Source of the DNA: a virus | Lineage: Duplodnaviria; Heunggongvirae; Uroviricota; Caudoviricetes | DNA: 12,834 nt | Virus record (IMG/VR): IMGVR_UViG_638341084_000023 | Reading direction: 5' to 3' (one strand) | In this document: positions 2,958 to 8,049 of the stretch, piece after piece | Layout: each line of letters opens with the position of its first letter | How positions within the stretch are numbered: position 1 is the first letter of the stretch | Notes under the pieces: generated by a model | Databases searched by the model: none | The model's input: the letters and a program-made list of their open reading frames with translations, nothing else | Told to the model about the DNA's origin: nothing | Translations under genes and position numbers: made by a program

Positions 2958-3587
2958 TCACTCAGGAATCTTAATCTTTCTCAATTCTTTATTTAGTTCA
3001 CAGATCTTTTTCTTAGACGGGAAAGTATCATACATCCAAAAACCAACAGTCTCTAAAACTATTATCATAACCATATACACAAGATAATTTAAAAGGCCTT
3101 CATTTTGCCCTATGGAAATAATGCAGATAATAGAAAAAAGGGTAAACAGCACAAAACACAGAAAGGAAAACAGACGACTAATAATAAATAAAAAACCTGA
3201 AAAATCAACATTAATAAAAAACACTCCGTTATCTTTCTCTATATAATTCTGAAGCTTAATCAACTGATTTATATACTGTCTTTTTTCTAATCTATTGCAA
3301 ATGTAAATAACATCTCTTCGGTTATAAGATGATTGCAATTTCAGCGCATCACGAATAATTTTATCATTTATTCTTTTTTCTATGGCACTCTTATCCTCCT
3401 CATCCAGATAACGTTCATACTTAACTAAATATAAAATTAACTTCTTAACATATTTAGGCTCTTTATACTTATAATTAAAAATGATCTTTCTTATCCAGAC
3501 TCCCATAACAATCAAACATGAAAAAATATATCCAGCTATTTTCTCCAGATGCTCTGTATGGTCAATCAAGTATTGGATCATATGCAT
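2958..3587 (-). CDS. AT-rich accessory (moron-like) gene; predicted membrane protein of unknown function
   Basis: 209-codon ORF in a region that is visibly much more AT-rich than its flanks, where stop codons would be frequent by chance. Encoded opposite to the surrounding operon. Hydrophobic segments near the N-terminus (IAGYIFSCLIVMGVWI) and two near the C-terminus (FLFIISRLFSFLCFVLFTLFSIICIISIG, LLNYLVYMVMIIVLETVGFWMY), with a K/E/Y-rich soluble middle. Confidence 0.6.
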   Translation of the reverse strand: MHMIQYLIDHTEHLEKIAGYIFSCLIVMGVWIRKIIFNYKYKEPKYVKKLILYLVKYERYLDEEDKSAIEKRINDKIIRDALKLQSSYNRRDVIYICNRLEKRQYINQLIKLQNYIEKDNGVFFINVDFSGFLFIISRLFSFLCFVLFTLFSIICIISIGQNEGLLNYLVYMVMIIVLETVGFWMYDTFPSKKKICELNKELRKIKIPE

Positions 3588-3633: not shown

Positions 3634-5697
3634 ATGTCCAATATACTATGGGGCGACCTGGAAACCTATTGCGAAATCCCTATTACGAACGGTACCCATG
3701 CGTATGCCGAAGGCGTTGAAGTGATGCTTTTCGCATGGGCTATCAACGACGGGCCAGTAAACGTGTGGGATATCACTGCCGGTGGTGGTATTCCACACGG
3801 CTTATACGAAGCAATCGCAGACCCTGAAACCCTGCTTTATTTCCATAACTCTCACTTCGACCGCACCGTTCTGCGTTATGCAATGCCGCGCCTGGCACCG
3901 CCAGTCGAACGTTGGCGCGACACAATGGTGCAGGCGCTGGCGCACGGTCTCCCGGGGTCTCTGGGGGAACTCTGCGAAGTACTAGGCGTCCCGCAAGACA
4001 AAGCGAAGGACAAAGAAGGTAAAGCGCTGATCCAGCTGTTCTGTAAGCCACGCCCGAAAAACAGCAAACTGCGCCGGGCCACCAGCAAAACCCACCCGGA
4101 AGAATGGCGGCGCTTTGTTGCTTACGCCGGACTGGATATCGAGGCAATGCGCGAAGTCTATAAACGTCTGCCGAAGTGGAATTATCAGGGGACAGAACTG
4201 GCGCTCTGGCATCGTGATCAGCAGATCAATGACCGGGGCGTCTGCATGGACGTGGAACTCGCACGCGCTGCGATCGACGCGGTAGACCAGGAACAAAAGC
4301 GCCTGGCAAAGCGTACACAGGAAATGACTGATGGCGAAGTGCAGGCAGCCACACAACGAGACGCGTTGATTAAGCACATTGTTGAATCCTACGGTGTGGA
4401 GCTACCAGACATGCAACGCAGTACTCTGGAACGTCGTATTGCCGACCCCGATTTACCATCTGCCGTGAAAGAACTGCTGGCTATCCGCCTGCAGGCCAGT
4501 ACTACCAGCACCAGTAAATACAAGGCACTGATGAAAGGCGTAAGCCACGACGGGCGCTTACGCGGTACGCTACAGTTCTGCGGGGCGTCACGTACCGGTC
4601 GTTGGGCCGGACGGCTATTCCAGCCCCAGAACCTTCCCCGCCCTTCACTAAAACAGGAACAAATAGACGAAGGCATCGAAGCACTGAAAGCCGGATGTGC
4701 AGACCTGCTGTTTGACAATATCATGGAACTAACCAGTTCAGCGTTACGTGGCTGCATTATCGCGCCAACAGGCAAAAAGCTGGTGGTAAGTGACTTGTCG
4801 AACATTGAAGGCCGTATGCTGGCATGGCTGGCGGGAGAAGAATGGAAACTGAATGCATTCAGAGAGTACGACGCCGGAACGGGTCCGGACTTATATAAAC
4901 TGGCGTATGCAAAAGCTTTCGATATTGCACCAGATGATGTTGATAAACACATGCGTCAGATCGGTAAAGTCATGGAACTCGGTCTGGGTTATGGTGGTGG
5001 TGTGTCGGCCTTCATCACTTTTGCACTGGTTTACGGTCTCGATCTCGACGAGCTGGCGAACGCCGCACTACCAAACATTCCCCGCGATGTTATCCGCGAG
5101 GCGAAAAGCTGGTACGACGAATCGGTTAAACGCAAGTCAACCTACGGGCTTTCTGAACGGGTATTTATCGCCTGCGACTCACTTAAACGTCTCTGGCGCC
5201 GGGCGCATCCCGCGACCTGTGATTTCTGGTACGAACTGGAGCGCACCGTCCGCACTGCAATCGCCACACCGCAAAAAACATTGTATTGCGGTTATCTTAA
5301 AATCCGCCGCGATGGCGCGTGGCTGCGCATACAGCTACCATCCGGACGCGCTGTATGCTACCCGTCTCCGGTTATCGAAAAAGGGAATATCACCTACATG
5401 GGGGTTAACTCTTATTCGCGTAAATGGCAACGACTCAAAACCTACGGCGGAAAGCTGGTGGAGAACATCACCCAGGCGGCCGCCCGCGACATTCTGGCCG
5501 GAAACATGCCGCTTATCGAAGATGCCGGTTACAGCATTGTGCTGACGGTACACAACGAGGTGATCACCGAAGCACCTGACACAGAAGATTTCAACGATAA
5601 AGCGCTTTCCGCGCTTCTCTCCACTGACCCCGAATGGGCGCCCGATATCCCACTGAACGCTGGCGGTTTTGAGGCGTACCACTACAAAAAAGATTGA
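3634..5697 (+). CDS. family A DNA polymerase with 3'-5' proofreading exonuclease domain (phage type)
   Basis: Exo I GDLETYCE (D-x-E), Exo II HNSHFD, Exo III YAGLD. Polymerase motif [15 protein letters not shown] (compare DYSQIELR), motif [17 protein letters not shown] (R-x3-K-x7-YG). Motif C reads VHNEV where HDE is expected. AAGG Shine-Dalgarno upstream. Confidence 0.9.
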
Positions 5698-5761
5698 TAT
5701 AACTCACCTTATCGAGCTATGGCGACATGCTGAATTCGAGTAAATTAAAGGAACAATACTT

Positions 5762-6523
5762 ATGCAGGAACTAACTGAAATGCCGATCACCTATCCATAC
5801 CCGAGAGAAACTTTTCCTGACTTTTTGAGGGAGTGTGGGTTCACCAATTTTTCCCACGAACAGCGTGAGACTTGTGACTGCTATCGTTTAACGAATGGCG
5901 TAATTGTTAACCTTTACACCACCCGGACCATTCAGTTTCAAGGTAACCCTCAAGAACGTCCCAATGTTGAAACTGCAATAATGACCCATTTAGGAACGCC
6001 GCCCACGGCAACACCACTAGCCGTAGAACAGCCATCTGAGCTCCCCAAAAAGATATTCATTGTTCACGGCCATGACCATACTGCAAAGGAGCAACTTGAG
6101 CTAATCCTTCATAAACTTGGATTACCAGACCATTTCATTTTGCAGAATACGGGAGGGACTGGACTCACCATTATTGAAGAGCTTGAACGTGAAATTGGGC
6201 AAGGACAAACTGCTACCCGTTTCGGGATTGTTCTTTTGACACCTGATGATATGGGATACTCAAAGCGCGCCGGTGAAGCAGAAATCCAACCCCGCGCAAG
6301 ACAGAACGTTGTACTCGAGATGGGTATGCTTCTTTCGTCCTTAGGGCGCAGCAATGTAGCAATCCTTCAGAAACAGCACCTAGAACAGCCTTCTGATGCT
6401 AACGGGATTTTGTATCTGAATTTCAACGACCATGTACGTGAAACAGTTCCTCGTCTAGTGCAACGGTTACAAAATTCTGGTTTCGAATTTACACAAGCTC
6501 AAATAGCTAACGCTTCCTCGTAA
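5762..6523 (+). CDS. two-domain protein: unknown Cys-containing N-terminal domain (about 95 aa) plus C-terminal TIR-like Rossmann nucleotide-binding domain; candidate defence effector
   Basis: C-terminal domain carries KKIFIVHGHD ... GIVLLTPDDMGY ... RARQNVVLEMGMLLSSLGRSNVAIL ... PSDANGILY. This matches my recollection of the TIR-like domain family (COG4271-type, as in CBASS Cap12 and TIR-STING TIR domains). Own AAAGGAA Shine-Dalgarno, own downstream terminator, and visibly lower GC and different codon choice than neighbours. Not verified by search. Confidence 0.55.
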   Translation: MQELTEMPITYPYPRETFPDFLRECGFTNFSHEQRETCDCYRLTNGVIVNLYTTRTIQFQGNPQERPNVETAIMTHLGTPPTATPLAVEQPSELPKKIFIVHGHDHTAKEQLELILHKLGLPDHFILQNTGGTGLTIIEELEREIGQGQTATRFGIVLLTPDDMGYSKRAGEAEIQPRARQNVVLEMGMLLSSLGRSNVAILQKQHLEQPSDANGILYLNFNDHVRETVPRLVQRLQNSGFEFTQAQIANASS

Positions 6524-6546
6524 TTACCCCTTATTGTTGATTACAA

Positions 6547-6570
6547 CCCTGCATCGCGGGGTTTTTTATT
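6547..6570 (+). terminator. rho-independent terminator after the TIR-like gene
   Basis: GC-rich hairpin CCCTGC-atc-GCGGGG (one G-U pair) directly followed by TTTTTTATTT, about 25 bp after the stop at 6521-6523. Confidence 0.5.
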
Positions 6571-6602
6571 TGGGAATAAAAACCCTATGTCATTTAAATA
6601 CC

Positions 6603-6664
6603 GGGACAGTCCGCTTTATTACCGGACTGTGCGGGAGGCTTTGCACCTTGAACAGTCCGGCGGG
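6603..6664. promoter_or_regulatory. three copies of an ACAGTCCG(G) motif (direct, inverted, direct) in the 234-bp intergenic region; candidate operator or iteron set
   Basis: GGGACAGTCCG at 6603-6613, CCGGACTGT at 6622-6630 (reverse complement) and ACAGTCCGG at 6652-6660. Copies 2 and 3 form a perfect 9-bp inverted repeat separated by 21 bp. Lies upstream of the strong-RBS gene at 6758. Confidence 0.3.
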
Positions 6665-6757
6665 TACGACCGGGCGATGCAGGTCTGGGCCAAAGCGAAC
6701 GTCGGTTTGATTTTTGTCTGATGCAGAACATGCGCGAAAAGCGTAAGGAGGTGGACG

Positions 6758-6952
6758 ATGTCTAATATCGATAATAAGGGTTGGGGGTTCCCCGCTCTGT
6801 CAAAAAAAGCACATTTCTTTAATTCGGGGGAAGCCATATCACTATGCGGAAAATGGATGTTCATAGGTATCAGGATTGATGAATGGCATGACCATCCTGA
6901 GAACTGCGCTATCTGCATGAAGAAACGCAAAAAGCAGGAAGGCGAAAGCTAA
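6758..6952 (+). CDS. small Cys/His-containing protein (possible zinc-ribbon), unknown function
   Basis: Strong AAGGAGGT Shine-Dalgarno 5 nt upstream of the ATG. Residues C30, H44, H46, C51, C54 (CGKW...HDHPENCAIC). Stop overlaps the next ATG (TAATG), suggesting coupling to the VRR-NUC gene. Confidence 0.5.
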   Translation: MSNIDNKGWGFPALSKKAHFFNSGEAISLCGKWMFIGIRIDEWHDHPENCAICMKKRKKQEGES

Positions 6953-7251: not shown

Positions 7252-8049
7252 TTAATCCGTATTTTTAACACGTATTTCGAAACACCCTTTTAATTTAGCT
7301 ATTTCCTTTTTAGAGGACATGATTGTGAATCTCATCCCTTTTAAATCATTAACAAATTCAAATTTTGCGCTATTTGACTCACAATCACCAACAACAAAAC
7401 CACTACCAAATGAATTGAGCAACACTTTAGTATTACTACCATCTACCATATAATATTCGTTATTTTTAAATGCAGTAACCTTCCCGAATGTATAGCTCAA
7501 TATCAACAACGTTATCACCCCTAAAGGAAAAGCTGACTTTAGGATTTTTAAATCGATATAATAAAATACGTTCTTATACTCTGCAAGCCTCCCAAATTTT
7601 CTAATGCTCTCCATATGATGTTCGTGTCTCTTACTATGGATTGGCATGGACACCACATTGTGATAATTCAACAAAAGCATAGCAAATAATAAAATATCCT
7701 GAACACTCATCACAGAAGTTTCGGAGAAATAACCAAAAGGCCAATGAAATCCTATTATACAAATATTAGCCATTAGCATAACAACTATAAATACAATAAA
7801 TGGAACATAATATTTCCCTTTCAAATCAAACATCAACGCCGCATATAAGGCGCCGAGAAATAAAAAACTAAAAAACAAAAGCCACACAGCCGAATACAAT
7901 AGCGTATTTAAGTCTATTTTAATAAAAAGGTCTGGATAGCCATAATACGATGCAACACCTTTCTGAAAAGAATATGCCATCGCATAAGCTAACGCTGAAA
8001 ACATAGTTAATAAAGAAACTTGCTTTGTAAATATTTTCGCCAGGGGCAT
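7252..8049 (-). CDS. AT-rich accessory (moron-like) gene; polytopic membrane protein with C-terminal soluble domain, unknown function
   Basis: 265-codon ORF in a second strongly AT-rich block, opposite strand to the operon. About five hydrophobic helices in residues 10-190, then a soluble C-terminal region of about 70 aa. GGAGG Shine-Dalgarno 5 nt upstream of the ATG on the minus strand. Confidence 0.6.
   Translation of the reverse strand: MPLAKIFTKQVSLLTMFSALAYAMAYSFQKGVASYYGYPDLFIKIDLNTLLYSAVWLLFFSFLFLGALYAALMFDLKGKYYVPFIVFIVVMLMANICIIGFHWPFGYFSETSVMSVQDILLFAMLLLNYHNVVSMPIHSKRHEHHMESIRKFGRLAEYKNVFYYIDLKILKSAFPLGVITLLILSYTFGKVTAFKNNEYYMVDGSNTKVLLNSFGSGFVVGDCESNSAKFEFVNDLKGMRFTIMSSKKEIAKLKGCFEIRVKNTD

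Follow-up and report, generated by a model that had tools for sequence, protein, structure and literature searches.

We analysed a 12,834-nucleotide stretch of DNA from a Caudoviricetes virus (IMG/VR record IMGVR_UViG_638341084_000023, hereafter the window), which is an Escherichia coli prophage adjoining yfhL, and in particular one of its genes, the TIR gene, whose 253-amino-acid product is named 'TIR domain-containing protein' in RefSeq. We class this product (the TIR protein) as a predicted single-protein TIR effector with a type of sensor not yet studied on a TIR enzyme. Its favoured role, to which we assign a probability of roughly 0.55, is that of a one-protein abortive-infection system carried as prophage cargo, in which the N-terminal domain (N-domain) would recognise an infection cue and cluster the TIR domains, leading to the hydrolysis of NAD+. 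If this is confirmed, the protein would join sensor and effector of immunity in very compact form and be very widespread, with a sensor unlike those of all the TIR effectors characterised so far.

Domains of the TIR protein

The C-terminal part of the protein matched the Pfam family PF10137 (CAP12/Pycsar effector TIR) over residues 97 to 222 with an E-value of 2.9e-31 and a score of 108.4 bits, against a gathering threshold of 24.7 bits, and the match covered 118 of the 119 profile positions. In sequence searches of the PDB, the closest solved sequences to this domain were TIR-STING (7un8, 9lmq) and PycTIR (8jsj), and the best Foldseek matches of the AlphaFold model in the PDB were the TIR-STING filament entries 9lmq/9lmr. 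These results bear out a preliminary description of this DNA, made from the letters alone, in which a C-terminal TIR domain of the Cap12/Pycsar type had been recognised. The open reading frame (ORF), the Shine-Dalgarno sequence, the terminator and the motifs quoted there are all present, the motifs being FIVHGHD (residues 99-105), VLLTPDD (157-163), RARQNVVLEMGMLLSSLGR (178-196) and PSDANGILY (210-218) in the 253-residue translation.

According to the paper on TIR-STING, E84 of SfSTING is catalytic, residues of the R78/N80/E84 region bind the phosphodiester and ribose of NAD+ and perform catalysis, and D110 of a neighbouring TIR completes the active site. Once the 8-residue offset of the deposited chain had been removed from the SfSTING numbering, R78, N80, E84 and the trans-acting D110 aligned with R180, N182, E186 and D212 of the TIR protein, E186 pairing with the Glu of the SfSTING motif NVVFEFG. 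All four residues were invariant in the 35 homologues compared (35/35; 50-93% identity to the query), so that the catalytic Glu, which the preliminary description had left to be looked for, is in place as the counterpart of SfSTING E84. The TIR domain is a PF10137 member with an active site of the TIR-STING type, and it is predicted to be a NADase.

As for the N-domain, residues 8 to 78 were modelled by AlphaFold with a predicted local distance difference test (pLDDT) score above 90 as a helix, a four-stranded antiparallel sheet and a helix, and the score was below 50 for residues 83 to 91, within the linker of residues 79 to 95. The fold is TBP-like (alpha-beta-alpha), and its top structural match was RNase H3. 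A profile made from 29 N-domains and compared with the PDB gave RNase HIII (E 0.011), LsoA (E 0.018) and a second RNase H3, and the three matches align on a common Y-x-[ST]-G-[ST]-x-x-x-Q-G motif. The query alone matched the Pfam family RnlA_toxin below its cut-off of 27 bits, both as the whole protein (E 0.098, 13.4 bits) and as the isolated N-domain (E 0.016, 15.9 bits); when the 29 N-domains were compared singly with Pfam, 10 matched RnlA_toxin (best E 8.6e-5) and 4 matched DUF3378. Taken by itself the sequence similarity stays below threshold; sequence, fold and motif agree, and the N-domain is a TBP-like domain of the type found at the N-terminus of RNase HIII (DUF3378) and in RnlA/LsoA. 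The 95 residues that had been described as an uncharacterised N-terminal domain can therefore be replaced by a folded part of known type, at about residues 8 to 78, and a linker.

The conservation pattern of this domain was examined in the 35 homologues. G46, Q60 and G61 were found in all of them and position 52 was always aromatic (35/35 in each case), followed by R/K42 (33/35), T56 (32/35) and N50 (28/35). On three adjacent strands, R/K42, N50, Y52, T56, Q58 and Q60 are spaced i, i+2, and because of this spacing they would lie on a single conserved face of the sheet, a placement taken from the periodicity rather than from coordinates. The isolated N-domain of Thermovibrio RNase H3 bound the RNA/DNA hybrid only, and neither double-stranded DNA nor double-stranded RNA; its exposed sheet binds the hybrid, with Tyr43 stacking on a deoxyribose and the amide of Gly52 contacting a 2'-OH. 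In the profile alignment, Tyr43 and Gly52 of this enzyme (Ta-RNase H3) correspond to Y52 and G61. Judging from this positional conservation, the sheet face of the N-domain is possibly a hybrid-binding surface as well. The three Cys residues to which attention had been drawn earlier do occur in the N-domain, in the stretch CGFTNFSHEQRETCDCY (residues 25-41), but they are not conserved in the family, and a metal-binding cluster was rejected because C25, C38 and C40 vary across homologues.

A scan of 1.84 billion representative proteins with the N-domain profile gave 941 matches; looking for homologues of the N-domain alone through a word index was uninformative, as it yielded no more than 2 fragments. 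The 29 matches of at least 180 residues, sorted by eye, comprised 16 TIR proteins, 6 proteins with a dCTP-deaminase body, 1 protein with multiple transmembrane (multi-TM) segments and 6 unassigned ones. When most of the non-TIR proteins were scanned in turn, P0199 (617 residues) matched the PADLOC dCTPase model with an E-value of 7e-173 and also the Pfam family dCMP_cyt_deam_1, and in this protein the TBP-like domain replaces the first ~140 positions of the dCTPase profile; P0165, P0241 and P0272 matched the same model. The multi-TM protein with the N-domain, P0234 (428 residues), matched no effector model, and P0181 carries the TBP-like domain as a tandem pair. Relatives of the N-domain thus do accompany other types of effector, namely dCTP deaminase-type and multi-TM proteins, which the preliminary description had raised as a question. 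In a published analysis, TBP-like domains were found fused to HEPN nucleases of the RNase LS family (the RnlA/LsoA RNases), and the fusion was interpreted as a means of targeting RNA in DNA-RNA duplexes, for example viral priming intermediates; one paper reports TBP-like domains on 1.5% of bacterial Schlafen defence nucleases. When one small domain turns up on several effectors that are otherwise unrelated, it usually marks a module for sensing or targeting, and we predict this role for the N-domain.

Prophage slot, mobility and relation to known systems

The window is collinear with E. coli IAI1 apart from one insertion sequence, and the replication module around the TIR gene encodes a DUF2800 nuclease, an Enc34-type single-stranded DNA (ssDNA)-binding protein, a family A DNA polymerase, a VRR-NUC protein and an SNF2 helicase. 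The TIR gene was present in 37 of 5,426 complete E. coli genomes, and the E. coli phages vB_EcoM-606R2, 611R5 and 689R2 encode the TIR protein at 98% amino-acid identity. In a blastn comparison with a prophage that has an empty site (E. coli 2011C-4315, locus L013), homology was lost at position 5685 and regained at 6584, from which we derive an inserted unit of about 0.9 kb made up of spacer, ORF and terminator; in the empty site, 5 nt separate the stop codon of the polymerase gene from the start of a gene for an ANR-family regulator. This comparison confirms the earlier view of the gene as a cassette of its own inserted in the phage replication operon.

With a 2.5-kb probe running from the 3' end of the polymerase gene to the VRR-NUC gene, 158 E. 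coli genomes were matched, 37 of them with the TIR gene. The alternatives found in the slot were a TIR allele of 72% identity, a DUF4406 protein, a minus-strand gene for an ATP-binding protein, YfbU, an S-adenosylmethionine (SAM) methyltransferase, or nothing. We take the DUF4406 protein of these sister prophages to be nucleoside 2-deoxyribosyltransferase-like. The TIR gene occupies the same slot in a Serratia prophage, and in a related Salmonella prophage a homologue is found at another slot of the replication module. The position after the polymerase gene (5685/5697 junction; loci L011, L012 and L013) is a cargo hotspot of this prophage family; it is worth mining for the further candidates, as yet uncharacterised, that it carries.

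The two E. coli alleles, which sit in the same slot of near-identical prophages, are 72% identical overall, 48% in the N-domain and 89% in the TIR domain, and the flanking polymerase DNA is 97.8% identical. In the family as a whole, mean pairwise identity was 33% for the N-domain and 72% for the TIR domain. The ratio of nonsynonymous to synonymous rates (dN/dS) between the two alleles was 0.16 in the N-domain and 0.03 in the TIR domain, which shows the N-domain to be under weaker constraint. In both domains the synonymous sites are saturated, with a proportion of synonymous differences (pS) of 0.74 between the alleles, so the two are old and reached the slot by exchange of cassettes, not by diversification within it. 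Owing to the same saturation, positive selection on the N-domain was not demonstrable from this pair. With their near-identical TIR domains and divergent N-domains, the two alleles form a natural pair for a specificity swap.

Relatives with about 50% identity to the E. coli protein were found in many phyla, among them Proteobacteria, Acidobacteriota, Verrucomicrobiota, Chloroflexota, Bacteroidota and Cyanobacteria, and relatives are encoded on 154 viral contigs. Seven homologue contexts were inspected and had no neighbour in common. Two of them are the related prophages of Serratia and Salmonella; the Vibrio cholerae homologue lies in an element with integrase, TrwC and SMC genes that resembles an integrative and conjugative element (ICE), and the Vicinamibacterales homologue in an ICE-like element with a type IV secretion system; one context is an islet of integrase, Mrr and PemK, and another an island with DUF4062, a reverse transcriptase, ParDE and Phd-YoeB. 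The homologue of V. parahaemolyticus (P0119, L018 6963-7979) is flanked by two attC-like repeats from a long array, with no other ORF between them, and is a one-ORF cassette of the chromosomal integron.

The survey of neighbours was extended to two ORFs on each side in 41 species, and among the resulting 150 flanking ORFs no Pfam or PADLOC family occurred more than 3 times, these tallies being plain counts per family. The flanking ORFs include Cas1/Cas4/Cas7, MADS, AriA, AbiLi, type II restriction-modification (R-M), Drt8 and PD-T7-4, together with housekeeping genes. No cyclase, STING, SAVED or other sensor partner was found among the other ORFs of the window. The TIR gene is a mobile single-gene cassette without a conserved partner. 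In this the survey agrees with the preliminary description, which had seen no signalling partner in the window and had regarded the gene as stand-alone prophage cargo; far from being confined to a housekeeping setting, the homologues occur in ICEs, in an integron cassette and in defence-type islands.

The family itself is not new, although it had been called undescribed. The TIR protein is a full-length member of the PADLOC defence candidate PDC-S35 (PDLC05003; E 6.8e-109, residues 10-253, 243 of 245 profile positions, a single gene; PADLOC-DB version 2023) and of phrog_16442 (E 2.4e-109), and the catalogue entry bears neither a function, nor a reading of the domains, nor an experiment. In open-access papers and preprints we found no publication that puts the family to experiment, that mentions PDC-S35 or WP_001157067, or that deals with an architecture joining a TIR to a TBP-like/RNase HIII domain.

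Among characterised systems, CBASS Cap12 (TIR-STING; SfSTING, 7un8/9lmq) shares with the TIR protein the PF10137 TIR domain with the active-site R, N and E and the trans-acting D, and by analogy clustering of the TIR domains is likely to be a common principle of activation. Unlike Cap12, the TIR protein lacks a STING domain, a CD-NTase and an input by cyclic dinucleotides, and its predicted sensor is N-terminal and TBP-like; no CD-NTase was found in the window or in the seven homologue contexts, and none recurred among the 150 flanking ORFs. PycTIR (8jsj) has the same order of parts, with the sensor at the N-terminus and the PF10137 TIR at the C-terminus, and both proteins carry the motifs ARxNVxLExG and PSDaxG, whereas the TIR protein lacks the domain for binding cyclic nucleoside monophosphates (cNMP) and a pyrimidine cyclase; the PADLOC PycTIR match covered residues 132 to 234 only, that is the TIR part (E 1e-8). 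A signalling TIR of the Thoeris kind was rejected, given the lack of a recurring partner, the one-ORF integron cassette and the absence of ThsB among the PADLOC matches.

The closest functional analogue appears to be SpbK of the Bacillus subtilis element ICEBs1, in which a TIR protein acts singly and its NADase becomes active through clustering by the dodecameric portal of phage SPbeta: both proteins are encoded on a mobile element and unite a sensor region and a TIR domain in the same polypeptide. The trigger of SpbK is the portal protein, whereas the sensor fold of the TIR protein points to nucleic acid, and the PDB sequence searches with the TIR protein gave no match to SpbK and no detectable homology. 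In RNase HIII and RnlA/LsoA, the partner of the TBP-like domain is an RNase H or a HEPN nuclease, here it is a TIR. Some anti-phage dCTP deaminases, such as P0199, carry the same TBP-like domain and, like the TIR protein, would deplete a metabolite, by means of an unrelated effector composed of a kinase-like part and a cytidine deaminase.

Proposed mechanism and alternative readings

In the uninfected cell, the protein would be dispersed and its TIR domain inactive. Upon infection, the exposed conserved face of the beta-sheet in the N-domain would bind a cue that is repeated or polymeric, the most specific candidate being an RNA/DNA hybrid or another intermediate of replication or transcription, and the alternative a multimeric phage protein. 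Binding of the cue would bring TIR domains side by side, and the Asp212 loop of one TIR would complete the Glu186 site of its neighbour, in the way Asp110 does in TIR-STING filaments; NAD+ would then be hydrolysed and the cell would cease to support phage growth. The nature of the cue is the tentative part of this scheme, and a hybrid or related intermediate is put forward as a possibility to which we would give clearly less than even odds. We rate this step low because of the acidic N-domain, the other roles of TBP-like folds and the risk of self-activation. If it is true, a TIR immune enzyme would here for the first time be activated by nucleic acid itself, with neither a second messenger nor a phage protein in between.

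A wider and rather doubtful extension is that the TBP-like domain is a portable pattern-recognition module for hybrids or related intermediates that arise in the course of phage infection, and that TIR domains assembled side by side along the hybrid are the active NADase. Such a module would serve at least five classes of effector (PF10137 TIR, dCTP deaminase, RnlA/LsoA HEPN RNases, Schlafen nucleases and the multi-TM protein), and since the same sensor sits on unrelated effectors, knowledge of its ligand would reveal at a stroke how each of several defence families is set off.

Several points weigh against the abortive-infection scheme or its parts. The sequence similarity of the N-domain to RNase HIII and RnlA lies below the Pfam thresholds. 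With a net charge of -4 and an isoelectric point of 5.0, against a family mean charge of about 0, the N-domain of the E. coli protein is acidic, which is unusual for a nucleic-acid binder, and the literature describes TBP-like folds that serve as contacts between proteins as well as some without any role in binding. If the cue were generic hybrids, a sensor encoded in a phage replication operon would run the risk of being triggered by the replication of its own prophage. The AlphaFold model of the TIR domain is of moderate confidence, with pLDDT 53-77 over much of the domain. A promoter search found no sigma-70-like promoter between 5400 and 7000, so none is seen in the cassette, the gene lies within the phage replication operon, and expression in the lysogen is presumed. 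The NADase activity, toxicity and phage protection of the family are likewise all predicted.

The strongest competitor, in our judgement unlikely and yet to be taken seriously, keeps the same effector logic and makes the N-domain a sensor of a phage protein in place of nucleic acid, for example of a multimeric structural or replication protein. It would fit the much faster divergence of the N-domain relative to the TIR domain, seen in both the mean pairwise identities and the dN/dS values, the acidic character of the E. coli N-domain and the occupation of one slot by alleles that differ mainly in this domain; TBP-like folds can be protein-interaction modules, and the clustering of SpbK by the SPbeta portal offers a precedent. 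The invariant and near-invariant residues of the sheet face, on the other hand, stand at positions where RNase H3 contacts the hybrid, the conservation of this face over many phyla is a better fit to a generic chemical cue than to a single phage protein that evolves fast, and the divergence of the N-domain, with dS saturated, does not demonstrate positive selection. A different possibility concerns the other half of the protein: the TIR domain might act on nucleic acids or nucleotides supplied by the N-domain, for instance as an N-glycosidase or 2',3'-cNMP synthetase with RNA or DNA as substrate, rather than deplete NAD+. The presence of the DUF4406 protein in the same slot of sister prophages would agree with it, as would the fusion to a domain whose relatives bind RNA/DNA hybrids; the TIR-STING paper compares the fold with that of nucleotide glycosylhydrolases such as MilB, to which it is common, and an earlier published analysis suggested a possible nuclease activity of some bacterial TIR domains. 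We consider it improbable, as the NAD+-binding and catalytic residues of SfSTING are all matched and invariant, and Cap12 and PycTIR, the nearest homologues to have been characterised, are NADases.

The location of the gene directly after the polymerase gene, on the same strand and with no promoter detected, could also mean that it serves the phage as a replication accessory, a factor of lytic superinfection or competition, or a counter-defence, instead of defending the lysogen, and its presence in three E. coli phages, with relatives on the 154 viral contigs, points the same way. This explanation, too, has little to recommend it over lysogen defence: the gene is dispensable, as the empty site and the unrelated cargo in the same slot indicate, the related Salmonella prophage holds its homologue elsewhere in the module, and the family is frequent on non-phage DNA as well, where it occurs in an integron cassette, on ICEs and on chromosomal islands next to R-M, Cas and toxin-antitoxin genes. 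By far the least probable alternative is that the protein belongs to CBASS or Pycsar as an orphan effector, with its cyclic nucleotide supplied by a cyclase encoded at another locus of the genome. PF10137 is named after the Cap12 and Pycsar effectors, and weak PADLOC and NCBIfam matches exist. The NCBIfam Cap12 models NF050171 and NF050172, however, reached only 34.8 and 30.5 bits against a cut-off of 450 and matched the TIR core alone, there is no STING, SAVED or cNMP-binding domain, the TBP-like domain being the only other one, no cyclase was found in the window or the seven contexts and none recurred among the 150 flanking ORFs, and the gene travels as a one-ORF integron cassette. This candidate was rejected on domain tests and neighbourhoods, and is already largely refuted.

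Feature coordinates and other features of the prophage

Table 1. Features of the TIR gene and its cassette, in positions of the window
Feature	Position	Strand	Remarks
TIR-gene ORF	5762..6523	+	ATG start, 253 aa; TBP-like domain, linker, TIR domain
Cargo cassette, DNA polymerase gene to ANR-family regulator gene	5686..6583	+	blastn against the empty-site prophage
Shine-Dalgarno-like AAGGA	5748..5752	+	9 nt 5' of the ATG; read from the sequence
N-terminal TBP-like domain, predicted sensor	5783..5995	+	residues ~8-78
Pro/Thr/Ala-rich linker	5996..6046	+	residues 79-95; gap-rich in the alignment, length varies among homologues
Cap12/Pycsar-type TIR domain, predicted NADase effector	6047..6520	+	residues 96-253
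GAG codon of Glu186, predicted catalytic Glu in RARQNVVLEMG	6317..6319	+	alignment with SfSTING
Intrinsic-terminator-like hairpin and T-run	6545..6573	+	terminator scan; inside the inserted segment

The hairpin found by the terminator scan (6545-6563) has a stem of 8 bp with 5 GC pairs and is followed by the T-run tail TTTTATTTGG. The G+C content of the TIR gene (0.457) is lower than that of the polymerase (0.542) and helicase (0.540) genes, in line with the lower value claimed at the outset, but the drop is modest relative to the three upstream genes (0.485-0.492) and the window (0.483); the compositional signal of the gene is weak for this reason. A possible alternative start is Met7 (ATG at 5780, preceded by AGGA at 5767-5770), and most homologues outside the enterobacterial clade start near the alignment position of Met7. 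Downstream of the cassette, the gene for the ANR-family regulator (6584-6765) is annotated as frameshifted in IAI1 and is represented in the window by short overlapping ORFs only, at 6534-6710 and 6758-6952.

Two further intervals of the replication module vary among the related prophages. The minus-strand ORF 2958-3587 (209 aa, G+C 0.289), set in the plus-strand replication operon between the genes of the ssDNA-binding protein and the polymerase, had no Pfam or PADLOC match; its slot holds a DUF4145 protein in Serratia, and Nmad5 with a hypothetical protein in E. coli 2011C-4315. It looks like a second cargo gene or moron, membrane-spanning as judged by eye. Another minus-strand ORF, 7252-8049 (265 aa, G+C 0.327), lies between the VRR-NUC and SNF2 helicase genes, had no family match and is probably membrane-spanning. 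Its place is taken by a DUF6338 protein and a hypothetical protein in STEC383, by two plus-strand ORFs in 606R2 and by a cytosine methyltransferase in 2011C-4315, and this interval is a third variable cargo slot.

The single departure from collinearity with IAI1 is a two-ORF insertion sequence at about 9960-11213 (ORFs 9990-10856 and 10853-11161, both on the minus strand), which we take to be IS3-like and which interrupts the integrase gene of the prophage. The integrase is intact in IAI1 (1,398 nt, 465 aa) and split in the window into 11199-12365 and 9701-9949, with a few bases duplicated at the junction of the insertion sequence in comparison with IAI1. The prophage is probably unable to excise.

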